Positions 11,301 through 59,518 of a DNA stretch of 64,000 bases are shown piece after piece; the stretch's first letter is position 1, and every line of letters begins with the position of its first letter. Position numbers and translations under genes: made by a program. Origin of the DNA: Podarcis bocagei (lineage: Eukaryota). The notes below the pieces were generated by a model. It saw only the letters and a list, made by a program, of their open reading frames with translations. It ran no database searches and was not told where the DNA came from. Where the stretch lies: NCBI GenBank assembly GCA_964188305.1, contig OZ076885.1; one strand, written 5' to 3'.

Positions 11301-12199
11301 GTAGTAACACCAGCCATTAAAATCACAGAAAAACACCCAGCCTAAAACCATCACGATCGCGTAGATGACACGTTCAGAACTCATCGGAGCACAGCTTGAA
11401 AAGATGAAAACAATGCTGACTCTGATAAACCTTATATTTTCCTTTGAGGATGATGCGTGTAAGGTACTAAAGGGGCATTTCTTGGGGATCATTTGTTCTT
11501 GTATCTTCTAACAATGCCTTGCAAATTGCTTAACGCGGGTAGGCGGATGATGCAAAGGCTGCTTTTAACAACTAATAGCATGACTCCACTTTAAGTTTAA
11601 GGGCTCCTTTGGAATAACTGCAATGTCTCTGAAACTGTGACGGCAGTCTCTTTGTGGACATGATGGGGTGGGGTGGATTCCCCCCCCCCTTTTGTACCAA
11701 CTTAAAACTCCGTAGTGGTCTATGAAGTACCTACTGCCCTATAATCCCAAAGTGTTGTTGCTGTTCTTATAAAACCCGAGGGCTGGAGGCAGCGAAAGAA
11801 GAAACACAGCCGCGCCAGGAAACTAAGAGCAGCAGGATGCGGGGTCAATACAGGGAACTATCTCGGCCCCTTGGCCGCCACGGGGCAACCCTCCCCCCCC
11901 CCCAAAGTAGGGCAGGGCTCCGCTCCTCCAGAAGCGGGTCGGCCAGCCAAAGAGAGCCTTCTTCGCGCGGGTTTTAAAGGAAGAGGCCCCGCGGAGGATG
12001 CAGAAAGGAGCAGGCCGCGCGTATCCTCCGTGAGGTAACAAAGACGCCGCCAAACCCTCCCGCCGAGCAGGGCAGCGGCGGCAGCCCCGCCGCACCCCGC
12101 GGGCTCCCCGGCGACAGAGGGCCGGCGCCCCTTCGAGCCTGTCCCCGAGAGAAAAGCGGGGAACTCACCCGTCTGCTTCTCCCGGATGCTGGCCGCCAT
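2253..12199 (-). CDS. SCFD1: SCFD1 / Sly1 (Sec1/Munc18 family), 5' part: coding exons 1-8; gene continues beyond the left edge
   Basis: Spliced translation [71 protein letters not shown]...[19 protein letters not shown]. Exons of 31, 71, 89, 91, 123, 88, 90 and 56 nt, all GT-AG, with consistent phases. Confidence 0.98.
3666..4001. mobile_element. Tc1/mariner (Tigger-like) MITE, family B
   Basis: TA|CAGTAGTGCCCCGCAAGACG...CTTGCGAGGCACCACTG|TA; near-identical copy at 33065-33387. Confidence 0.88.
4063..4152 (-). CDS. SCFD1: SCFD1 exon 7
   Basis: cag|CCATCAAC...ACACTTG|gtaagt; [30 protein letters not shown]. Confidence 0.97.
4279..4490. mobile_element. Old MITE family with GGGYTGTATCCAA-type terminal inverted repeats (possibly PIF/Harbinger); related copies near 3000-3340, 6900-7090, 16167-16328, 19130-19350, 22362-22545, 22740-22890, 62930-63140
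   Basis: agggtgtatccaa...ttggattctaccct termini and a shared internal cccctcaaaat..gctccaga motif. Superfamily assignment is tentative. Confidence 0.5.
4524..4692. mobile_element. Tc2/pogo-like MITE
   Basis: TA|CCGTATTTTTCGCTCTATAACAC...GTGTTATGGTGCAAAAAATACGG|TA. Confidence 0.85.
4938..5025 (-). CDS. SCFD1: SCFD1 exon 6
   Basis: tag|GTTTTTGAC...TATCGTG|gtaggt; [29 protein letters not shown]. Confidence 0.97.
5306..5428 (-). CDS. SCFD1: SCFD1 exon 5
   Basis: cag|GATCTT...GCTAAG|gtaaag; [41 protein letters not shown]. Confidence 0.97.
7541..7631 (-). CDS. SCFD1: SCFD1 exon 4
   Basis: cag|TCTTCTGCAC...TGCCAG|gtagtg; [30 protein letters not shown]. Confidence 0.97.
8452..8540 (-). CDS. SCFD1: SCFD1 exon 3
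   Basis: cag|GTTCTC...CATCT|gtatgt; [29 protein letters not shown]. Confidence 0.97.
8862..9083 (+). mobile_element. Tc1/mariner (Tigger-like) MITE, family A
   Basis: TA|CAGTGGTACCT...AGGTACCACTG|TA; eight copies in the window. Strand gives relative orientation only. Confidence 0.9.
9401..9625 (-). mobile_element. Tigger-like MITE family A, inverted relative to the 8862 copy
   Basis: Same TIRs and TA TSD; internal sequence is the reverse complement. Confidence 0.9.
10237..10307 (-). CDS. SCFD1: SCFD1 exon 2
   Basis: cag|TGGCTCTA...TGGAAA|gtaagt; (V)[23 protein letters not shown]. Confidence 0.97.
11154..11273. mobile_element. Degraded hAT-type hairpin MITE
   Basis: Resembles the 27704/32130/35048 family (ccccaacct...cagatgtt.tggac.acaa...gtccaaaa.ca.ctggag). 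Confidence 0.55.
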
Positions 12200-12620
12200 C
12201 TTTTCTGCCACTCAGGCCGGCTCCGCCCCCGTCGCCGCTACAGCAGCCGGCAGACGTGGCGCCCCGGCGAGGCGGCCCCTGCTGCTGCTGCTGCTGCTGC
12301 GAGCGACCTGAGGCGCGGCGGGCGGAGCCTCCTTGCCCGGCGTCCCCTCTGGCTCCTCGTATATCCCAGCCGCCGGCGCCGCAACTGGGGCTTCTCGGTG
12401 ATCTTCGGGGATGGTTGGAAGAGGAGAGGGCGGCGGTTTCCCCCTTCTGCTTCTTCCCACCGCCGGCTCTTCTCCCACTGAGGCGCTCGCGGCCCTCGCG
12501 CGGGACGGGGTTGGCGGTGCCGGACGGGGCGGTTCTGAGGTGAATTGGCAGCGAGGAGCCAAAATATAGGGAAGAGGGAGAAAACGCCACGCACAAAAGT
12601 TGCCGCCTAGGGGCCGGTAG
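11780..12620 (-). promoter_or_regulatory. CpG-island promoter and exon 1 region of SCFD1; YY1 motif over the start codon; (CAG)7 at 12279-12299
   Basis: High GC and CpG content. AAGATGGCGGC on the minus strand at 12192-12202; GC box ccgcccc near 12223. Confidence 0.88.
12169..12199 (-). CDS. SCFD1: SCFD1 exon 1, coding part
   Basis: aagATGG Kozak context; [10 protein letters not shown]+G|gtgagt. Confidence 0.95.
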
Positions 12621-33387: not shown

Positions 33388-35047
33388 TAGATTGATATCC
33401 AATAAAAATCTCAGTGGTAAGTTGAATTTCTAAGCCTGTAAAATAAGACACTTTGCAACACAGCAAACCCCAAGATGCAAGTATCTTCCATGCCTAGTGC
33501 AAAGTTAATACTTTGCTTAAAATCTTCTTCCCAAACACAATATGTCAGTTTAGGTTAGCCTCCAACATCCCACTTCTCCAACAAGCAAAGATATCACAAC
33601 AGTTTAGCTTTGCTAGCTGGAAAGGAGACTAATGAATTTGCACCACTATTGCTGCATTACACTGACCATGTGTAAAGATTTGAATTAAAAGCTAATTTTA
33701 TTTGTTTTAGGAATACAGTATGCACCAATAAAAAGTTCTGAAACAGATACTACATAGAAATCCTAGTTATAAGCTCCATGCAGGATCATCCATTTGGGAG
33801 AAAACAGGTCTGCAAAAATAAGGCTTTTGCCTGCTGCTCAAAAGACAGCTTGCAGGCATTTTATTCCACAAACAGAGCTCCAACAAGAGATAACTCTCTG
33901 CCCACCCCCACTTCAGAGGATGGCTTCCAAGAGGGACATTGGTTTGAAATTGGCAAAAGGCCTCTGCTTTGGCAACAGTATTTAGCTGACTATACAAAAC
34001 AACCAAATCACAAATATTTTTTGTTTTTGTTGATAATTGTTTTTAGATTACCTCTCCTGAAAAAATATTCTTTTCTTAATAATGTCCAAAGGCATTCAAG
34101 ATCCACAAGCTCTAAGTATTTCAGCAGTGATATCATCTGTACAGGTAGGGTTCCCTGTGTATCATGGACAGAAGCAGATGGGAAAAGTTACAACCTTCAC
34201 TATCTTCAATCATTCCTCTTACAGAAAAAGAAACTGGGAATATTTTATTATCCTAAACACTTGTCTATCCAGAAATAAGCAAAATACTCATGAGTAAGCA
34301 TCTTGAGGATCACAGCAGGCGGTTCCTAAATTCAGCAGATGGATAAAGAAAGGTATGCATGTGCACAGAGTCTTAATGATATTTAGCAAACTTACATTTC
34401 CTTTGCAGGCTTTTTTGTGGGATGGAACTTGGGTTATCTGGATCATGCTAAGTAATCAAAACACTGTTTTAAAAGCTTTATTTTTCTATTTCCAGACAGG
34501 TACAACATGGGCTACAAAAATACATTTCATAAGTCAAGGATGATACTTTTTATCAAAAATTAATAAACGTAACAAGGCAGGTTTTATTTCAAACTTGAGA
34601 TGGTGTCATGACTTCAGATAAAACAAAGGCAAAGAAAAGGATCCAGCTGGGGGGCTGTATCCTGGGCTTCTTCACCTCTGGCAAGCCACTTTGACAGGTG
34701 GGTGGGACTGTCCACCTGTCAATCACCTGATGTCACCATGATTTCAGAGAACCTATCTGCCTCTTTTGCTGCACCTCTTCAAGTCCAAGTAGCGCTTGAA
34801 GTCATTGCCGAACACCATTTTCTTCACACCCTGCTCTCAAGCAGGGACAAGCTACATTCCGGAGTTCCCTGTTCTCACTGGGGCCTGAAGACACACCAAA
34901 CAGCTGACTGGCACTGACTTCAAATCCCAATTTTGTCAGGGATCCACTCCACCTGGGAGCTCTGATTCAGTACTCCTGAATGGAACCAACCCTAGCAGGT
35001 CTTGGAAGCCCTGCTTACCAAGAAACAAGCAACAGTACACTTTACAG

Positions 35048-35182
35048 CAGGCTTCCTCAAACTCGGCCCTCAGGTGTTTTTGGCCTACAACTCCCATGAT
35101 CCCTAGCTAGCAGGACTAGTGGTCAGGGATGATGGGAATTGTAGTCTCGAAACATCTGGAGGGCTGAGTTTGAAGAAGCCTG
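35048..35182. mobile_element. hAT-type hairpin MITE
   Basis: Same family as 32130; perfect TSD CTTTACAG. Confidence 0.9.
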
Positions 35183-36237
35183 CTTTACAGTTCCCAATTG
35201 TTTGTTTGCAGCCATGTTTTACCTGCTGCACACCTGATGTCATATAAACCACTCTGAAGATTTTCCCGAATCAAGTGGTACAAAAATTTTATGGAATAAA
35301 AAATAAATAGAAAAATGACTTGGGGCATGGCTTGGAGAAAATGGCTTTGTGGGTAAAATTAGGACCCCTGCTGGGCCAAAGTTTCCCCACTGCTGAGATA
35401 AAACAATAGAACACCTGCAGCTAACAGTCACTTTTGAGAACTATGGAAAAAATGTTGTGTGTATTAAAAAAACCAACAACTTATTTTGGAGCAACCTCTG
35501 ATTTCAAAGTCAAATCTACACTGCCACAGTCAGTCAGTTTTAAATAAAATGTTCTAAACAAACAAAACAAGGAAAGGAGACAGAATTTCAAATGCATGTT
35601 TTCCCTTCTGTTAACAGGCAACAAAGACAAGCTTTGCACTTCAGGAGCTTTCACAGATGCCATTTCAGTTCACTGTATGTGTCCTGAATTTAAATATGAA
35701 ATGGTCTTAAGTTCACATTGTGGTTTGTGACAGCCTAATGCTACCACTTGAAAGGAAACCATTGGGCTATTTGTTTAGCAAATCATATTCCGTTTTTAGC
35801 GGAAATGCTCTCTAAATTGAAGGACAGCTCCAAGCAATAATAACCAGCCTGCATGTATTATACACTGCAAATCTGAAATGACTTAACATTCCTGAACTTA
35901 GGAAGTAGTATCTTAGAGTCTTTTAGCTCAGTTTACTCAGAACTGTCCACTGAATTCAATAGGACTTGCTTCCTAGTACTTTGGACTTACAACTTACAAA
36001 CCTACTTAGACTGGAACCCAAACAGTAATTTAAGAAATCTCACTAGAAAAAGGAAGATATTTCAGCCTAAGATTCTGGGGTGTTCAGTGGAAACAGGGAA
36101 GATAACCCTATGAATCAGAAGCACGTGTGTAATATATGGATGCTGAAATATGTCAGCTGCCTCAGCCCTTTCACTACTTATAGAAAAGAGTGCTCCAACC
36201 ATAAACAGTTGCTAAGTCACAGTGATCAACTTGACAG

Positions 36238-38989: not shown

Positions 38990-39135
38990 AACCGCAGTTA
39001 AATGCCAAAGCAGCTGCTTTGCATGCAGAATGTCCCACGCTCCACCCCCAGTCTCAGGGTTGGCAGGCGCTCCCTGCCTGAAATCCCGGAGAGCAGCTAC
39101 CAGCCAGAGCAGGCAATACTGAACTGGACGGGCTG
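38990..39135 (-). mobile_element. Old tRNA-Ala-like SINE (others at about 20780-20900 minus, 50230-50432 minus, 57680-57815 plus)
   Basis: Head of the form gtagctcagtggtagagca...ttgcatgcagaagg, shared among the copies. Confidence 0.6.
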
Positions 39136-39149
39136 ATGCTTCGGCGTCT

Positions 39150-39780
39150 CCCGGAGCGCCGCGTGAAAGGCGGGAAAAACGCCCTCCCTGCGCGCGCCCT
39201 TCTCCCAACCCCCGCGGCCACCATTCCTGCCCCGCGCACCTCAGGCTCACCTGCGCGATCCGTAAAGCGGGCGGACCCGCAACCTCCCGCTCGCACGTCC
39301 ACTCCAAAATAACCGCCCGAGCATTCAAAACTCCAGCATCCGCTTGCGTCACAAAGGCGGCTAAGGACGCGAGGAGGAAGCCCCGCCCCGCCCCGCCCCT
39401 GGTCCTTCCGATCGCTTGGTCGGACGCTCGGCTGCTCTTGCCTAAATTAAGCAGAATTCCCGGATCTCCGAGGGACATCTGTTAATCGGACGCTAGGCTG
39501 CTGCTGTCTTGGTGCTCCTCTTCTCACTCATTCTGTCTCTTAGCTGTCGTAGGAGGGAGGTGCTTGCAGTGCCTTCGCTCCTCTTCACCTCCCGCGGTCC
39601 GAAGCCTTCGGGGCGACGCGGGGTCGTAGCGGCGAAGCCTCTCGCTCGCGGGAAAAGCGGCCGCGGCGGGGGACTGGCTTCAGTTTGAGCCTGGCTTGCT
39701 CGCCGGGGACGTGCATTTTCGCTCCCAGTTACCGAAGCACAGCCGGGGAAGGTTGCGCGGGGCTGGCGGGGAGCGGAATA
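39150..39780 (-). promoter_or_regulatory. CpG-island promoter of G2E3 with GC boxes, a CHR element and E2F-like sites
   Basis: CpG-rich. (CCCCG)3 at 39381-39399; TTTGAA on the minus strand at 39324-39329; GCGGGAAA at 39170 and 39648. Confidence 0.85.
39251..39340 (-). other. G2E3: G2E3 non-coding exon 1 (5' end approximate)
   Basis: Strong donor GCAG|gtgagc at 39251/39250 inside the CpG island. Confidence 0.75.
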
Positions 39781-39995
39781 CAGTGGTACCTCGGGTTACA
39801 TACGCTTCAGGTTACAGACTCCGTTAACCCAGAAATAGTGCTTCAGCTTAAGAACTTTGCTTCAGGATGGGAATAGAAATCGCGCGGCGGAAGCGGGAGG
39901 CCCCATTAGCTAAAGTGGTGCTTCAGGTTAAGAACAGTTTCAGGTTAAGAACGGACCTCCGGAACAAATTAAGTACTTAACCGGAGGTACCACTG
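39781..39995 (+). mobile_element. Tigger-like MITE family A
   Basis: TIRs and TA TSD. Confidence 0.9.
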
Positions 39996-51005: not shown

Positions 51006-51569
51006 TGTGATGGCCTGGGAATCCGATTCAGAGGCTGAACCAGAGGAACCCCAGCCTGCACAGGAGTCCCCGCCTCCAGGGCCGGCTGAACTGGGGCAGG
51101 GCCTTGGATCTGAAGCACCTGCACCTGTGCCGGATCCTCAGGAGCAGGCACCAGGTGAATCCTCTCTGGCTCCGGAGGTGATTGAGGACACAGTGCCTAC
51201 AGGTGCGCCTCTGGGTCCATTAACCCTCCAGCCTCTCCTGAGCTGCAGAGGCTCAGGGCAGAGAGGCGGAGGGAACTGGTTTCTCCCAGGAGGAGTGCTC
51301 GCCTTAAGGCCAGGAGAGGCGGGTCACCTGGGGGCCGGGGCCGCCCCTGGCCTCAGAGAAGATAAAGGCCAGTCAGCCCGGTCCCAGGTTGCGGGAGCAA
51401 CGTCATTGAAGAGCTGTTTCGGCCAGCACCCTGTCCTGTTCCTCCAGAGTTCCTGTCCTTGCCCTGCTCCTCGCCCTGGACCCCGCTTCACCCGTGGAGG
51501 ACTGTCTGCCGACCCTCGACTCAGGTCCTGGACCTCGCCCCACGGTAACCTCCCCCTGGGACCAGCACA
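51006..51569 (+). mobile_element. Solo LTR (564 bp, probably Gypsy/Ty3) with a decayed ORF in U3
   Basis: TGTG...CACA termini; perfect 5-bp TSD CAAAT; GC-rich block sharply distinct from its flanks. Confidence 0.85.
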
Positions 51570-51937
51570 CAAATCCTGAAAAGGGAACACTCCAGACTGC
51601 ACTATTTTGTTGCCGCAATAATGTGGTAACACTAGGGAAACACTGCAGAACATATACTGTAATAAAGCAGAACAAATCCACCACTAATGCACTGTTATTG
51701 TGTCAGGTCCTAAGAAAATGTTGCAGAATACATCCACAACAAAACGCCAGTCTGGAGGGGTTCTGAGTGACTCTCTGTAGGCCTTGAGTTTCTTTCTTAT
51801 TATAGGCTGGGAGCAAATTGCAGGAATGCAGTTTCACTCAGGTTTACACCTGATGTTCCTAACTCCTGGCAGATAATAGAGGGATGCTTGATTTGGCCTG
51901 ATATATGGCTAGGAGAGACTCAGTGTGGTGTAGGAGA

Positions 51938-52226
51938 GAGCCAGTGTGGTGTAGTGGTTAAGAGCGGTAGTCACGTAATCTGGGTAACCGGGTTCGTGTC
52001 TCCGCTCCTCCACCTGCAGCTGCTGGGTGACCTTGGGCCAGTCACACGTCTGTGAAGTCTCTCAGCCCCACTCACCTCACAGAGTGTTTGTTGTGGGGGA
52101 GGAAGGGAAAGGAGAATGTTAGCCGCTTTGAGACTCCTGAAGGGGAGTGAAAGGCGGGATATCAAATCCAAACTCTTCTTCTTCTTCTTCTTCTTCTTCT
52201 TCTTCTTCTTCTTCTTCTTCTTCTTC
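51938..52226 (+). mobile_element. Squam3-type SINE, full length, long (CTT)n tail
   Basis: Box A gtggtgtagtggtt, box B gggttcgtgtc, CORE-like segment and a (CTT)n tail. Confidence 0.9.
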
Positions 52227-52375
52227 ATGCTTAAGCAAATCTCCCATGCTGGAACTGCTGCTCTGCTCCTTCTGGCTGTCCCAGTTATATCCAGAGCAAA
52301 GTCAAGTCTCTGCTTGAACTGCAGATGGTAGATTTCTAGACTTCTTTTACAGGGTCCCTCTTTTATGATCTAGGA

Positions 52376-53465
52376 CAGTGGTGGCGAACCTAGGGCACAT
52401 GTGCCAGAGAGGGCACTCAGACCCCTCTCTGTGGGCATGCACGCCATTGCCCCAGCAGGGCCGTAGCTTCCGTGCCGGGGTCGGGGGAGGAGGAGGAGAG
52501 GAGAGCTTGCGTGCGCCATCCAAAGCCTGCGGCACCAGGGCCTGCTGAGCGAGCGAGGGACTGAGCAGACATTGACTTTTGATGCACCAGGGCCTCCCGC
52601 CAGTCTGTTTTTCCTACTCGAGAGTAAGCCGCCTTGAGTTTAGCAGGGCTTAACTCCTAGGTCACTAAGCATATAAAGCCTGCAGCCTAAGAAGGGGCTG
52701 CTGGGTTTACATGTTCGTTGCACTTTCCCGCGGAAGCCTACAGAGAAATTAATTCCGTGGAGGCTGTGATCAAATGGCAGCCGAAGAAACGGCAAACAAC
52801 AACAACAACAACAACAACAACGACAACAAATTATTTATACCTTGCCCATCTGGACTGGGTTTATTTATTTATATTTATTTGTATGTGCGCACGCGGATAA
52901 TCATTATTATCTCATATTAAAAATTGGGAGGGTGGCTCTTAGTACAGCCCTCCAATGTACACTAGTGGCCAAAATTGTGGAACCTTCTGGAAAAAATGTA
53001 TTTCCAACGTTTGATGGCTCATAACATCACTTTGTTTTGGAGTAATACCAGTGTGTTTTCTCTGTGGGGACGCAGGGGGACGCATACCCCTTAAAATTTT
53101 GTGAATTTAACGGGAGAAGAAATTCACTGTATTTATTTTTCCTGATTTGAACTGTATTTATTTTTCCCCGGTGGTGATTTTCTTGAGTCAAAATGAGAGT
53201 ACCCCCTAAACATTTTTTTTTAGAAAAAAAGCACTGAGTTATACCATAAAATTATATATCATTGGAGAGATAATTTAATGAAGAATGTAATGCAATAAAT
53301 TTTATGAAGGATTATTAATACAACAGCAGTCATAAAGAAGAAATGTGAAACACACAGAAAAAAATGAGATATTCAAGTTAAATTGCCATGTTGGCACTTT
53401 GCGATAAATAAGTGGGTTTTGGGTTGCAGTTTTGGCACTCAGTCTTTAAAAGGTCACCATCACTG
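52376..53465. mobile_element. Non-autonomous hAT (Charlie-like) element with nested insertions
   Basis: CAGTGGTGGCGAACCT...AGGTCACCATCACTG; perfect TSD ATCTAGGA. Confidence 0.85.
53049..53236. mobile_element. hAT-type MITE nested in the 52376 element
   Basis: CAGTGTGTTTT...AAAAGCACTG; TSD AGTAATAC/AGTTATAC. Confidence 0.85.
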
Positions 53466-54051
53466 ATCTAGGATTTTTGTGATGGTCTATACTTTTAGAC
53501 TGCTTCTCCTAGACAAAGTTCACTGAACTAGTTCAAAAATCTCTGAAAGTGGTTTCTGTAATTCCTAGGTGAACTAAAAGTGAATTAAGTTCATTTTCGG
53601 GTACAACTTTTATAATTCATCCTCTTGGTTCATCCCAGCCTCATAGCTTTCATTTAAAAAGAGTCACACAAACAAAAGTTAGAAAGCAAAATGTGGAGGC
53701 ACCATCCTAAGGTTTATTAGGCAGATACAGAGACACTGCTGTTGCTAAAGCTGCTCACTTAGTCACTTAATCACTGCTGAGCAATTGGAAGGAATGTGAT
53801 GCATTTCCTAGATCTTCCTTGCTGAAGAGATTTTGACCACACCATACATTTAAAGCACATTCAGCACACATTTAAAGCACATAGCGTCCCCTAAAGATTC
53901 ATGGCAATTGTAGTTTCACTAAAATTCCCAGTTCCCCTAATAAACTATGAGAAACTAAAAAAGTAGCCAAGGTAAGTGATAAATTGAACATATGCAAAAG
54001 AAGAGAGAGCCCCCGTATCTTTTAACAGGTACAGTATGTAGAAAAAGGAAT

Positions 54052-54332
54052 TGTTGTAGCAATTCCAGAATAGGTTGTGTAGGTTTCCAGAATACCTGGG
54101 TAGGAATTGAATTTAGGGCAGGAATAAAGCAGTGGAAGGAGAGATGGGGGAATTGAGACTAGAACTAGAACCAGGGAAAAAACTTGATTTAGATATGGCA
54201 GGCAGACTTACAGACAGGGAGGTTCTTTTACTACTTAATGATAGAAATTAGATTGAGTCTCATTATTCTTAAATCAAAAGTTAATCTCAATGGATTTGTG
54301 CCGCCATATGCTGGATGTTCTGTTAAATAACA
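54052..54332. mobile_element. Possible short solo LTR
   Basis: TGTT...AACA termini; TSD ambiguous. Confidence 0.35.
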
Positions 54333-56052
54333 ATTTGCTACTAGTTATGCTGCCTTGTCACTCGAATGAGAGGGGAAGGTCACATCGCTGTCCAGTTTCT
54401 TAGCTGAGCCCACATCCTAGGCCTGATTTGCCCCTGTCTTGCATTGGAAACGTATAGGCCTGTCCAATTTCGCTATCTGTTTCTTTGATTTATTCTGAGG
54501 TGAACCACAGACATAAGAGCATAAAATTAAGCTCCATTTGAACTGTGCAACTGATTGATTAATTTTGCGAGGAAAAAGAAGTCAAGGGCACTAAAGAACA
54601 GGTTGTTCGGCGTGCAATGCAAGTGATATTTATGAACACATAGTAGGTGTGCATAAAGAGTATGTTTGTGTAAAGTGGTATTTTATTGAAGAATGTGATG
54701 TAGGTTGTCATGGAGATTAAAAGCTTTGAAGTGCTTTTCATTGGTGCTAGTTATGGTTGCTGGGCACAAGGATATTAGTTCTGGCACCCTGAATCTTTCA
54801 TTGTTGCAAAAATAATTGCACTTTCATCTGCGCTGCAAGGGCTATTGAAGTAGGATAAATAAATGTAGACACATGAACACATCTAAGTTTAAAGGTAAAC
54901 ACGGTGCCCTTGTGACACGTCTCTGGTCAAAATGATGTGGCTGCAGCTTCCACAAACCACTCAAATGCTTGTTTTCTGTTGCACGGCCGTTCAGGCCATT
55001 TACAAGATGTCATTACAAGCTGTATAGAATCGGCACTTGCTTCAAAAGGCAAAGGCGACGGAGAGGTATCGACAGCCTCTGCGTTGCTGGTAAATATAAA
55101 GGGGCCCTTTAGAAGCAAAAAGGCAAACTGAATGAAAAGCTTGTGTTTCTGTAAGGAGAGTCTGGTATACGGTATTTGTATAACAACTCCAGCCTCACTT
55201 ACAGCTTTTTATATATATCTAAAAAGCAGAGCAATTTCTCCAACGATTAGGCGGACAAATTACATTGACAAGTTTTACTTCTGTGAAAAGCTCTGGACTG
55301 TCTGTACAGGAACACTGTTGTTTTGCCGAATTGCTTTGGGTAACTTCTTAACCAATAAATCAACGGCAGGAGCTGCAACCTTAAGCGGCAGGCGGCCACA
55401 AGCACAAAACAGACATCAAACGAGTTTTCAAAACTGACTAAAAGTGATGGTGATTAACTAGAATTATAGATATTTATATTTAAACTGACACCACAGAATA
55501 CTTTTGAATCTTGACAGATATGTGGAATATTTAAATGCAGTAATTGCAGTTACGGGACCTCCTGGGATTAACCTGTTCGAAGGGTAGTGACATATTACAG
55601 GTTTGGGAAGAAAGGAATACGGAAAGGGATAGAAATGAGATTAATTCATGCATATACAAGTATGTAGTGTTATTAGTATTCTGTTCTAGTCTACCTTTGA
55701 AAACACACAATGTTTTAGAAGTTTCTCTTCGTTCTCTTGTAGCGCAGTCGTGTGAGAGTTTACTCGGATGAAAGGCCCAGGGTGTGTACAGTGGAGCTTT
55801 TTCCTAGGTGGTTGTGGATAGCATTCTGATAAAGTAGCATAATCTGTAGACTAGCTGACAGTTAACAAAACTACCACCACATATCCTATATCTAAACTAT
55901 GGTTTTGGTCTATAGTCAGAATACTTATACAGTGTATAACCAATGTGACTGTATTTCAAAGGGAAAAGGGCTTCTGTTCTTTTAAGATTTAAGATTTGGG
56001 ATTTAATTTGTAAATGCTCATCGGCAACCTATCTATCTGTCATCTATCTATC

Positions 56053-56332
56053 ATGAGGTCCGGCGCCGAGGGCCTTCTGGCGGTTCCCTCATTGCGAGAA
56101 GCAAAGCTACAGGGAACCAGGCAAAGGGCCTTCTCGGTAGTGGTGCCCGCCCTGTGGAACACCCTCCCATCAGATGTCAAAGAGATAAACAACTACCTGA
56201 CATTCAGAAGACACCTGAAGGCAGCCCTGTTCAGGGAAATTTTTAATGTGTGATATTTTAGTGTATTTTTGGGTCTTTGTTGGAAGCCGCCCAGAGTGGC
56301 CGGGGAAACCCAGCCAGATGGGCGGGGTACAA

Positions 56333-56378
<46 letters not shown>

Positions 56379-56380
56379 GT
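56053..56380 (+). mobile_element. L2 3' fragment with (AAT)n tail
   Basis: Highly similar to 654-935. Confidence 0.92.
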
Positions 56381-56385
56381 AATTA

Positions 56386-56613
56386 CAGTGGTACCTTGGG
56401 TTAAGAACTTAATTCGTTCTGGAGGTCTGTTCTTAACCTGAAACTGTTCTTAACCTGAAGCACCACTTTAGCTAATGGGGCCTCCTGCTGCCACCACGCT
56501 GCTGGAGCATGATTTCTGTTCTTATCCTGAAGCAAAGTTCTTAACCTGAAGCACTATTTCTGGGTTAGCGGAGTCTGTAACCTGAAGCGTATGTAACCTG
56601 AAGCGTATGTAAC
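56386..56613 (-). mobile_element. Tigger-like MITE family A, running into the assembly gap
   Basis: Left TIR with TA; right end lost in Ns. Confidence 0.88.
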
Positions 56614-56835
56614 NNNNNNNNNNNNNNNNNNNNNNNNNNNNNNNNNNNNNNNNNNNNNNNNNNNNNNNNNNNNNNNNNNNNNNNNNNNNNNNNNNNNNNN
56701 NNNNNNNNNNNNNNNNNNNNNNNNNNNNNNNNNNNNNNNNNNNNNNNNNNNNNNNNNNNNNNNNNNNNNNNNNNNNNNNNNNNNNNNNNNNNNNNNNNNN
56801 NNNNNNNNNNNNNNNNNNNNNNNNNNNNNNNNNNN
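56614..56835. other. Assembly gap (222 N)
   Basis: Run of N. Confidence 1.
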
Positions 56836-57157
56836 ATCCTTGATCCAAATAAAAGGGGTGGGGTGGGGTAGAATTATGGACTTGTATTTGGATGTCAACA
56901 ACTTAGTGTGGTCGTTGCAAAAAAACTTGCATGCACAAGTCACACAGAAGACGCTTTTCTTGAAGCACCCATAGTGCCATCACACTACACAGTGGAAATA
57001 ACATTTACATGCATTGCTGATCTGGGATGAAGTCACTTTTCCACAGCTGGATTTGTGTGCACTTTAGGTGCCTACAGCTGCACACAGGAATTATATGAGA
57101 CCCAGGACTAATCTATACCGATCAGTTAAAATCTTATAAATGCGTTATAAACATGTG

Positions 57158-57173
57158 ACACCAGAGGGCGCTG
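57158..57173 (+). promoter_or_regulatory. Candidate CTCF site
   Basis: ACACCAGAGGGCGCTG closely matches the CTCF core. Confidence 0.6.
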
Positions 57174-57876
57174 TAGAGCAATGTAAAATCGTCAATGTAA
57201 AATTGCATTGAGAGCTACATAACTTTTTTTAAAAAAGCACTTTTACAATCAGTATAGATCTAGCCCCAGAAGCACGGCGAAATAAAATGCATGCTTGTCA
57301 TTTTTGTATTCCCTGTTGCCACTTCTGGGCAATGTGTGAAGTAGCTCTTCTGGTTGCAGGAAACCAGAATGATGAATATTACTCACTTGACCAGGGTATT
57401 TTTTTATTGCCACTTTTTGGTGATACATACAACCACAGGGAAGAAGTGGAATTGTGTTGTGTGTTAATGTGCAAAGGGCAAATTGCAAATGGACTCTGTA
57501 GCTCTCATGTCCTCTCATCACAGCATTCAGTTGTGATCATTAAAAGAATCCTTCAAATGTATTTGTTTGGTAATCAATTCTGGAATTTCTAGCTGGATAT
57601 TCTAGAATATAATCAAGGCAGCTTACAAACAGTTAAGACAAACTGTGTAGCAAAAATCTCTGGTGATTATGAGTGTACTAAGGGGCTGCATATCAGTGGT
57701 AGAGCACTTACTTGCCATGCAAAAAACCTTAGTCTGGAGCCCCAGAAACCCATAGCCAGACAATAGTGTGTTACTTGGCTCAATGGTCTGACTTGGAGTG
57801 AAGCAGCTTCCAACGTCCCTTTGAACTGCAGATTTCATTATGCGATGAGAAAAAAAGAGCTTGTTATCAAACTTCC

Positions 57877-58559
57877 TGTCATGGGCTCAGGCACTGAGCC
57901 AGAGGGGAAGGAGGAGATGGAGAGCGAAGGGGAATAATCTGAGGGGAGTTCAGGAGGGTATGCCAGTGATCAGAGAGATTCCATGAGTCTCTCCAGCGAA
58001 TCAGAGGATTCCCAGAAAGGGGCCCCCAAAGGCAGGGCAAGGGGGGCCAGTGGGGAGTCTCCAAGCGGCAGCTGGAGATCAGGGGTAGCTTCCCCACCAG
58101 AGCGTAGCGGGGGGAAAGAATCCCAAGGGTTAAAACAAGAGCCTCCTGCAGAAGGAGAGAGTGAGGCTGGACTGACCACGCGCCAAGTTCAAATGTGGAG
58201 GCGCGCGGGCCAGCAGAAAACCTGGATTGGGAGCCAGGTCCTAAAGCCCGCCGGAAGGGTGGGGCGGAGTCAGAAGAATCCGCCTCTGAAGAGAGTAGGA
58301 AGGAGGTAACCCCAGAGGGCAGGAGGACCCGGAGGAGAAAGGAGCAAAAGGAGGAGAGGGATAGGTGGAGCAAAGCTCGGCTCTTGAACTGGTGTATGAG
58401 CGGGGAGGAGTCAGACGGAGCTTCGCCGGTCTAAGGACTCAGACGTAGCGCTGAGCGCCACGGATGTCAAACCAACAATGAACCACAATAAAGACTTTTG
58501 TTTATAAAGAGCAACTGGCGTTGGTCCTCTGTGAGCTGGGACCTGAGGCAGCGCTGACA
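57877..58559 (+). mobile_element. Solo LTR (683 bp, probably Gypsy/Ty3) with a decayed ORF in U3
   Basis: TGTCA...TGACA termini; perfect 5-bp TSD CTTCC; AATAAA at 58487. Confidence 0.9.
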
Positions 58560-58761
58560 CTTCCCTTAAAGTGCAATCTTATGCATGTTTCTTCAGAAGC
58601 AAACCCCTGCTTTATTCAAAGGAACTGACTCCCAATGTGTTTTTTAGGACTGCAGCTTTAAACATATTCGCTTTGCTGTCATCCTATCAGCTTGAATGGA
58701 AGTTCATTGGCTGCATTTTATGTTCTACTAACCTGCCCATGACAACAACAACATCAAATCA

Positions 58762-58812
<51 letters not shown>

Positions 58813-58945
58813 CCTATTGTTGTTGTTAATTTATTTATACCCTGCCCATATGGGCAGCTCCCAACAACAACAACAACAACAACATAATAATAATAATAAT
58901 AATAATAATAAAGTGATAAAGCATCAAACATTAAAAACTTCCCTA
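58762..58945 (-). repeat. L2 3'-tail remnant with (ATT)n, (CAA)n and (AAT)n microsatellites
   Basis: tttatttataccctgcccat...catcaaacattaaaaacttccctaaa plus simple repeats. Confidence 0.75.
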
Positions 58946-59017
58946 AAATGTTTTTAAATATTATTTTATGTTGTTTTTAAGCAGATTGTTTTACTGCATT
59001 GTTGTTTGCTGCCCTGG

Positions 59018-59518
59018 TGTCAAGAACTGGGCAGAGGAGGAGGAATGGTGGAGACCGCCTCCCCATCCTGACCCTTCCAGGGAGGAGGAAGAGGATGACA
59101 GTTTAGAATTACAACAGTGGTTTGCGGGAGGTCACAGCTCAGAGGCAGATGAGGGGAAAAGTTGGGAAATAATGGAAGAGAAGGAGCAGGCAGAGCCGGA
59201 GCAGCAGCTGGCTGGTTGTCATTAGAAAGCATTCCAGACCCACCTTCTCCCAGAACCTGGCAAGCCTTAAAGGTAGGAGAGCAAAAAGCTCAAAGACAGA
59301 GGGCACATAGTAGCACCCGTAGAAGAGACAAGGTGAATGATGAATGAGAAAGTGGGAGAGAAGGGCGTGGAGATTCACTCGGGATGCCATTATCCAAGAG
59401 GCTGGGTTCTAGAGCTTCTCTCTGTAAAGTTTGAAATAAAAAAGGACGGTAAGAAACTTTTCCTTGTCTTTATATTATCCTGGGCAACAAACTGGGAGCC
59501 ACTGACAGCTTCCTGACA
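59018..59518 (+). mobile_element. Solo LTR (501 bp, probably Gypsy/Ty3) with a decayed ORF in U3
   Basis: TGTCA...TGACA termini; TSD CCTGG/CCTGA; AATAAA at 59435. Confidence 0.82.

Follow-up and report, generated by a model that had tools for sequence, protein, structure and literature searches.

The window, a 64,000-nucleotide stretch of Podarcis bocagei DNA (contig OZ076885.1, assembly GCA_964188305.1), contains the three LTRs listed in Table 1 (E1, E2 and E3). On sequence grounds, all three are classified as solo LTRs of chromoviruses of the Tf1/sushi type (Ty3/Gypsy), self-priming in E1 and E2 and presumably so in E3. The TG..CA ends and 5-bp target site duplications (TSDs) of the initial annotation are found in E1 and E2; the duplication of E3 is imperfect, matching at 4 of 5 positions. 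At 34731-35232 there is a further stretch with TG..CA ends and a duplication of 5 bp, probably a chance occurrence. The LTRs are as dissimilar as had been reported, word-7 blastn giving no match among them at E<=1. Each carries a reading frame that opens at LTR base +2 and encodes, in the same order, an acidic part, an (S/T)P motif and an Arg-rich part. The frame stops at 51363-51365 in E1, within GATAAA, at 58432-58434 in E2 and at 59345-59347 in E3; the latter two stops lie 52 and 87 nt upstream of AATAAA, in agreement with the 50-90 nt given initially.

Table 1. Features of the three LTRs in the window
Feature	Position	Strand	Remarks
E1 solo LTR	51006..51569	+	TG..CA; TSD CAAAT
E1 U3-encoded Pol tail	51007..51365	+	copy frame-shifted near 51,210
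E1 RRSARL codons	51288..51305	+	Ser-Pro just before
E1 TATA-like GATAAA	51361..51366	+	contains the stop codon; ~30 nt upstream of inferred R start; putative promoter role
E1 self-primer	51391..51400	+	complement of sequence directly after 5' LTR; inferred R start
E2 solo LTR, subfamily E2a	57877..58559	+	TSD CTTCC; 118-nt internal deletion
E2 U3-encoded Pol tail	57878..58434	+	premature stop 57935-57937; frame-shifting deletion near 58,180
E2 self-primer	58413..58423	+	inferred R start; last tail codons overlap
E2 AATAAA	58487..58492	+	
E3 solo LTR, older family	59018..59518	+	TSD CCTGG/CCTGA
E3 U3-encoded tail	59019..59347	+	copy frame-shifted near 59,215
E3 AATAAA	59435..59440	+	

The claim that the frame occupies U3 holds for E1, where the frame would end about 25 nt before R, and has to be qualified for E2, where it would continue about 20 nt into R. 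This placement presumes that R begins at the self-primer complement, as it does in Tf1. The copies in the window are broken. The single -1 shift ascribed to each of them corresponds to a small frame-shifting deletion in E1 and E3, defined relative to open paralogues; E2 is disrupted by its 118-nt deletion and by a premature stop codon that was absent from the earlier account.

The 40 copies scored for E1 include 39 elsewhere in the genome, at 92-94%; full-length relatives were recovered, and the genomic copies of E3 other than that in the window are 84-87% identical. A fourth family, E4, was met by accident. The order PR-RT-RH-IN was established by Pfam on the Pol of one element (L091) and by the order of motifs in E1, E2 and E4 elements; the Pol traces of E3 are limited to remnants of integrase and RNase H. 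The chromodomain is located at the C-terminus of integrase, after GPY/F and upstream of the polypurine tract. It is intact in E1 and E4 and degenerate in E2 (57.3, 49.5 and 14.8 bits, respectively, for PF00385 Chromo; cut-off 25.1). Self-priming is indicated by 10-11-nt complements between the LTR and the sequence following the 5' LTR in E1, E2 and E4. E1 is organized as a single gag-pol ORF, and E2 and E4 have overlapping gag and pol frames.

The conservation of the frame exceeds chance: paralogues keep it open although the copies in the window are broken. It is open in 19 of the 30 best-scoring genomic copies of E1 (120 codons), 15 of the 23 best-scoring copies of E2 (208-248 codons, about 224) and 4 of the 30 best-scoring copies of E3 (105-111 codons). 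When one open copy of each was shuffled by dinucleotides, the frame was still open in 66 (E1), 3 (E2) and 22 (E3) of 2000 shuffles.

The initial annotation proposed that the frame might be a C-terminal tail of Pol/integrase that continues past the polypurine tract into the 3' LTR. This is directly supported by the junctions and loci of E1 and E2 type. An E2-type junction pattern had 1500 matches genome-wide and none in the control; the in-frame length is found in 76 of the first 100 in the list, with 20 lacking one base, 3 lacking two and 1 having one base too many. The chromodomain is open into U3 at 20 of 30 E2-type loci, 17 of which are open from the integrase core. The E1 pattern had 178 matches, with the in-frame length in 68 of the first 100, and at 14 of 20 loci the frame stays open into U3, starting from GPY/F or the chromodomain. 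Both junction samples are in genome order. All 11 E4 junctions are in frame. The junction pattern for E3 at first gave seven matches, none with Pol; one decayed element (L288/L293) has integrase remnants upstream and a chromodomain that is split by a frameshift, and its tail shares the frame of the second chromodomain half. Seven full-length copies, chosen from loci already known to be in frame, have LTRs that are 99.6-100% identical and a single uninterrupted Pol-plus-tail frame. The in-frame Pol fusion is the modal genome-wide state, and the read-through structure of Pol can be regarded as very likely for the E1, E2 and E3 families.

Many copies are out of frame, probably through slippage in G-runs. 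Nearest-neighbour DNA searches, which were dominated by one contig (C19), returned junctions that are mostly out of frame, and this sample includes the window's own E1 and E2 subfamilies. By the chromodomain anchor, 3 of 6 E2a, 1 of 24 E2b and 4 of 29 E1 junctions parsed are in frame; by a closer anchor the figures are 2 of 5, 2 of 23 and 4 of 28. Seven copies (L091, L164, L168, L175, L181, L182 and L195) have a long uninterrupted Pol that stops at the polypurine tract or no more than about 80 nt beyond it, which suggests that an element may do without the tail in cis or receive it in trans. Within the tail, G7 runs show shifts in 2 of 22 copies and in 7 of 24. Most of these shifts are gains, so that they cannot account for the losses at the junction in the sample rich in C19. 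Assembly error as the sole cause of the variable G-runs was rejected because both lengths occur in short-read contigs, a weak argument given the few flanking letters; the extra base is present in three X2 contigs and two X3 contigs and absent from a deep X7 contig. Where an E1 junction is one base short, the stop of Pol and the LTR AUG overlap as TGATG. Such stop-start coupling was considered as the usual E1 mechanism and discarded, since the genome-order sample rules it out as the main state.

The dN/dS comparison suggested in the initial annotation gave ratios well below 1 for the E2 tail, a weaker result for E1 and no significant signal for E4. In 15 non-independent pairs of six E2 subfamilies, dN/dS lies at 0.20-0.36 and no upper bootstrap bound exceeds 0.58 (dS 0.3-1.6). 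At dS above 1, the six subfamilies show an approximately twofold third-position excess and invariant blocks. The E1 tail has dN/dS of 0.27-0.60, the interval lying below 1 in 7 of 10 pairs, and the intervals of the E4 tail contain 1 in 10 of 10 pairs. Shared variants of E3 are distributed over the codon positions as 11/9/10, without a third-position excess (38 copies, variants and indels). For comparison, dN/dS exceeds 1.2 in shifted plus-strand frames and is 0.09-0.10 in the Pol core and 0.33 in the part of the Pol tail before the polypurine tract. The lengths of the tail vary among subfamilies by whole codons. Purifying selection acts on the six E2 subfamilies, and selection on the E1 tail is weaker.

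Judged from its sequence, the tail is a low-complexity segment of 100-230 residues, acidic and then basic. The length following the chromodomain is 132 residues in E1, 147 in E4 and about 360 in E2, and chromodomain integrity is inverse to tail length in these three families, which are three data points. The same charge order is found in four families (E1-E4) and in other squamates. Blastp among the four family tails found no similarity and no alignable sequence, and Pfam assigned no family to the tails of E1, E2 and E3. The tail of E4 has no S/T-P. Proteins in which Pol and tail are fused were found for Podarcis muralis in UniRef and, at 49% identity, in a Logan contig, and similar tails are present in proteins of the amphisbaenian Rhineura floridana and the viper Vipera latastei; the protein searches were confined to longer proteins, which favours fusions, and gene models can mask frameshifts. 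The same kind of search with the E3 tail yielded none among 86 candidates. In a representative search, 54 of 129 matches (of 150), with those ending before the chromodomain end left out, have more than 100 residues beyond the match, and most of these 54 proteins look like chimeric gene models. No RNA data set was listed as carrying the sequence. Contigs from four runs of another organism, presumed to be RNA, cover the 3' end of E2 and are silent on translation.

Extension of Pol into the 3' LTR has been described in plant CRM group A (e.g. Beetle1/Beetle7) and some other Beta chromoviruses, and the LTR-encoded C-terminal module of integrase in CRM group A was proposed to be a targeting domain (PMC3059260, PMC3605345). 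The lizard elements resemble CRM group A in that Pol crosses the polypurine tract, enters the 3' LTR and adds a C-terminal module to integrase. They differ from it in having a self-primer complement in place of tRNA-Met priming, in keeping, upstream of the polypurine tract, the chromodomain that is replaced by the CR motif in plants, and in having a low-complexity tail that fills U3. With the vertebrate V-clade of the Tf1/sushi group (sushi-ichi, Amn-ichi/ni/san) they share PR-RT-RH-IN-chromodomain, GPY/F, CCHC Gag, self-priming and, in E2 and E4, overlapping gag/pol frames; a U3-encoded tail is not mentioned in the available parts of the accounts of this group (PMC6317226, bioRxiv 10.1101/2022.12.06.519325, PMC4131045). 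Fish and frog relatives appear, with LTR edges inferred, to end about 10-30 residues past Gly-Gly-x-Val. The earlier statement that no description was known thus does not extend to the plant elements and stands for vertebrates, in which a U3-encoded Pol tail was not found described in the literature searched. Coding sequence also overlaps U3 in HIV nef and MMTV sag, which are separate genes expressed from spliced RNAs, whereas the U3 frame of the lizard elements is the end of Pol.

The integrase of Ty1 has a disordered C-terminus with a bipartite NLS and an AC40-targeting domain, and the targeting of Ty5 is phosphorylation-dependent (PMC9673352). These elements provide the working model: an integrase tail that is long, disordered and open to phosphorylation and that combines basic signals for import with a short motif for tethering. 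In Ty1/copia, compared by description only, the tail is within pol upstream of RT and not in the LTR. HMGN binds the acidic patch through the HMGN/Dsup motif RRSARLSA (PMC12487698). The E1 tail contains RRSARL, 6 of the 8 residues of this core, and keeps it in 5 of 5 aligned E1 copies. RRSARL is predicted to have the anchor arginine position in a likewise disordered context, but E1 continues with KA instead of SA and the motif is absent in E2, E3 and E4.

We hold with moderate confidence that the tail is probably a nuclear-import and chromatin-docking module of integrase. It would be translated within Gag-Pol, from the 3' copy of U3 in the genomic RNA, and would remain attached to integrase. 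Through its basic end it would interact with importin and/or the acidic patch of the nucleosome, the binding being gated through phosphorylation of nearby S/T-P and CK2-type sites, and its acidic part would serve as a flexible spacer. The E2 elements combine a degenerate chromodomain with the longest tail, and there the tail may have taken over targeting, like the CR motif in plant CRM.

Frame and selection data say nothing about processing, and the tail could be made in Pol and then removed by the protease, or act before integration in RT stimulation, RNA packaging or particle assembly. The C-terminus of Ty1 integrase also stimulates RT (PMC9673352), and a basic end could bind RNA. These variants are rather unlikely in view of the NLS-like Arg clusters, the HMGN-like motif of E1 and the inverse relation, of three data points, between chromodomain integrity and tail length. 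The initial annotation alternatively suggested a separate U3 accessory protein, which would be made, also or mainly, by reinitiation at the junction AUG or from a subgenomic RNA, like nef/sag. An in-frame AUG is present at LTR+5 in E1 and within the polypurine tract in E2, the one-base-short E1 copies have the TGATG overlap and many copies are out of frame. Such a protein is nonetheless improbable: the U3 frame of E4 has no Met, the first Met of E3 is near codon 50, the first LTR-encoded Met in two E2 subfamilies is at codon 25 or 36, TGATG belongs to the LTR end and in-frame fusion predominates; the case against it is weaker in E1 and E2, where AUGs are present. That the tail is tolerated baggage, in which read-through persists because a purine-rich promoter sequence disfavours stops and the protein is loosely constrained, is very unlikely, for although its dN/dS (~0.3) is far above that of the Pol core (0.09), E3 and E4 lack significant selection and the tails are unalignable between families, the third-position excess and invariant blocks of E2 are unexpected under DNA-level constraint alone and the charge order is common to four families and other squamates.

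As a putative docking module of integrase, the tail offers a candidate, testable account of how chromoviruses of vertebrates gain access to chromatin and select their insertion sites. When vertebrate repeats are annotated and dated, LTRs are taken to be non-coding. In these abundant lizard families U3 has a dual use, as promoter and as coding sequence under codon selection, which affects the reading of LTR divergence. Solo LTRs spread ready-made reading frames across the genome, and Podarcis gene models already absorb some of them.

A more speculative and doubtful proposal is that squamate chromoviruses converted their promoter region into a fast-evolving, LTR-encoded targeting module of integrase, convergent with plant centromeric retrotransposons. 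It would be an HMGN mimic in E1 and a chromodomain replacement in E2, where it may steer insertions to chromosome-end heterochromatin, and the slippery G-runs of the junction would generate tail-plus and tail-minus progeny differing in insertion behaviour. In a comparison with the centromeric concentration of plant CRM group A, 18 of 51 E2-type junctions on contig C1 are located in the last 0.74 Mb, by telomeric arrays, two pairs of them being duplicates; E1 junctions are dispersed.

The three solo LTRs of the window, E1, E2 and E3, lie where the initial annotation placed them. The 5-bp target-site duplications (TSDs) described there stand for E1 and E2 and are imperfect in E3. DNA comparison likewise found no nucleotide similarity among the three.

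Solo LTRs of the window, with positions and target-site duplications
E1 LTR	51006-51569	CAAAT
E2 LTR	57877-58559	CTTCC
E3 LTR	59018-59518	matches at 4/5 bases

All three belong to repeat families of the 1.6-Gb genome, the nearest named proteins being those of Podarcis muralis. Each contains, as reported, a frame from LTR base +2 with an acidic first half and then a basic end. The frame is broken near 51,210 in the window copy of E1 and near 59,215 in that of E3; the E2 copy has a 118-nt deletion near 58,180 and a stop at 57935-57937. An open frame occurs naturally among the best-scoring paralogues: in 19 of 30 for E1, 15 of 23 for E2 and 4 of 30 for E3. When one open copy was shuffled, the frame survived in 66 (E1), 3 (E2) and 22 (E3) of 2000 trials.

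Full-length relatives of E1 and E2 encode a CCHC Gag, PR-RT-RH-IN, a GPY/F module and a chromodomain, and their Pol proteins are 46% identical. Gag and pol overlap in different frames in E2 and in E4, a fourth family outside the window, and form a single ORF in E1. The sequence 3' of the 5' LTR is complementary to a 10-11-nt site within the LTR, a self-primer described as a signature of the Tf1/sushi group (PMC6317226, bioRxiv 10.1101/2022.12.06.519325). If R begins at this site, the whole of U3 is occupied by the frame; its end falls within a TATA-like box in E1, and in E2 it extends about 20 nt into R.

The relation of the U3 frame to Pol was read at the junction of the polypurine tract with the 3' LTR. 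Copies found by DNA similarity, many of them on contig C19, gave a mostly out-of-frame impression: an in-frame junction was seen in 3 of 6 copies of E2a (the subfamily of the window copy), 1 of 24 of E2b and 4 of 29 parsed E1 copies. The G-runs adjoining the tract vary in length among these copies, and seven copies whose Pol is long and unbroken have their stop at the tract or just past it. The impression was reversed by pattern searches that permitted any run length, the first 100 junctions in genome order being scored for E2-type and for E1 elements. Among the first 100 of 1500 E2-type junctions, 76 had the in-frame length, 20 lacked one base, 3 lacked two and 1 had one extra, and the chromodomain was continuous into U3 in 20 of 30 fetched loci, spanning six subfamilies. 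E1 junctions (first 100 of 178) matched the in-frame length in 68 cases, fell short of it in 18 and exceeded it in 14, with the frame open from GPY/F or chromodomain across U3 in 14 of 20 loci. These counts bear out the earlier suggestion that Pol reads through the tract into the 3' LTR. All 11 E4 junctions are in frame. One decayed E3 element, whose LTR shares 90% identity with that of the window, retains integrase remnants upstream of U3 and the second half of a chromodomain in frame with it. In seven copies with 99.6-100% identical LTRs, a single frame extends all the way from protease to the stop in U3; having been picked among in-frame loci, these copies establish existence, not frequency.

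We infer that the fusion of Pol with the U3-encoded tail is the replicating state and that out-of-frame copies are products of slippage. Where such copies keep a long Pol, the tail may be dispensable or provided in trans. Because the genomic RNA carries U3 at its 3' end, the tail would be translated from there as the terminus of Gag-Pol. The other option of the initial annotation, a separate U3 gene, is unlikely to apply generally, since E4 lacks a Met in its U3 frame, though AUGs adjoin the E1 and E2 junctions.

The LTR-encoded integrase tail is real and selected. When individual natural E2a and E2b copies are compared, the U3 frame has a dN/dS of 0.24-0.32, to be compared with >1.2 in shifted plus-strand frames, 0.09-0.10 in the Pol core and 0.33 in the Pol tail before the tract. 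The proposed comparison between subfamilies gave, for E2, 0.20-0.36 in 15 of 15 non-independent pairs of six subfamilies (bootstrap upper bounds <=0.58). E1 values are 0.27-0.60, with the interval below 1 in 7 of 10 pairs. In E4 the intervals include 1 in all 10 pairs, and no codon-position bias was seen in E3.

The post-chromodomain tails contain 18-25% Asp/Glu, about 14% hydrophobic residues and CK2-type sites, with S/T-P sites in families except E4; no sequence could be aligned between the tails of different families. By analogy with the Ty1 integrase C-terminus, which houses an NLS and a targeting domain (PMC9673352), the tail is proposed to be a disordered module for import and chromatin docking. 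Two features hint at this putative role: the E1 tail keeps RRSARL, 6 of 8 residues of the HMGN acidic-patch motif (PMC12487698), and the longest tail is that of E2, where the chromodomain is degenerate.

In plant CRM group A, Pol is described as extending into the 3' LTR, at the site encoding the CR targeting motif (PMC3059260, PMC3605345). The lizard elements share this layout, but they are not CRM members because they retain a chromodomain, self-prime and bear a low-complexity tail. The initial annotation knew of no description; this holds for vertebrates within a literature search that had Repbase/Dfam and key older papers outside its scope, and not for the layout itself, given the plant precedent. 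Fused Pol-tail proteins occur in UniRef entries of P. muralis and in one Logan contig (only longer proteins were searched). Proteins of Rhineura floridana and Vipera latastei have a chromodomain, a similar junction and an acidic-to-basic tail. Read-through into U3 is inferred in all of these from the Pol-tail sequences. In Labeo rohita and frog proteins the run-on is apparently only 10-30 residues.

More chromovirus families with a junction between Gly-Gly-Asp and Val and an acidic-to-basic U3 frame are found at L266, L274, L279 (E4), L289, L290, L275 and L270; the E4 copies have 100% identical LTRs. C19 (96.5 Mb; L103-L139 and others) carries many full-length copies that are almost identical, have internal deletions and are out of frame at the junction; it is probably a repeat-rich W chromosome. 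At one end of contig C1 (G000:C1:141.93-142.66 Mb, L327-L345), the last 0.74 Mb contains 18 of its 51 E2-type junctions, from four subfamilies. One of them has its 3' flank directly in a TTAGGG array, a second is close to such an array, and flanks are shared within two pairs; the crowding could reflect targeting or retention.

In tiny E3 derivatives (L157, L160, L163, L271, L277, L278, L283), roughly the first 25 bp of the LTR are followed by a piece of the polypurine tract and then by an LTR. Podarcis gene models P0009 and P0011-P0014 start at the E1 LTR AUG, linked to gag or other exons, as possible annotation artefacts or exaptation. The E2a cases L091 and L093 have the TSD GGTGT, found also at L040 and L048, possibly through duplicated loci or site preference. 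A CR1-like LINE splits an E2a element inside gag at G000:C3:103.20-103.21 Mb (L095, L096). The window also contains two CpG-island promoter regions, at 39000-39800 and at 11800-12600, the latter with a first exon on the minus strand and an ATG near 12,198.
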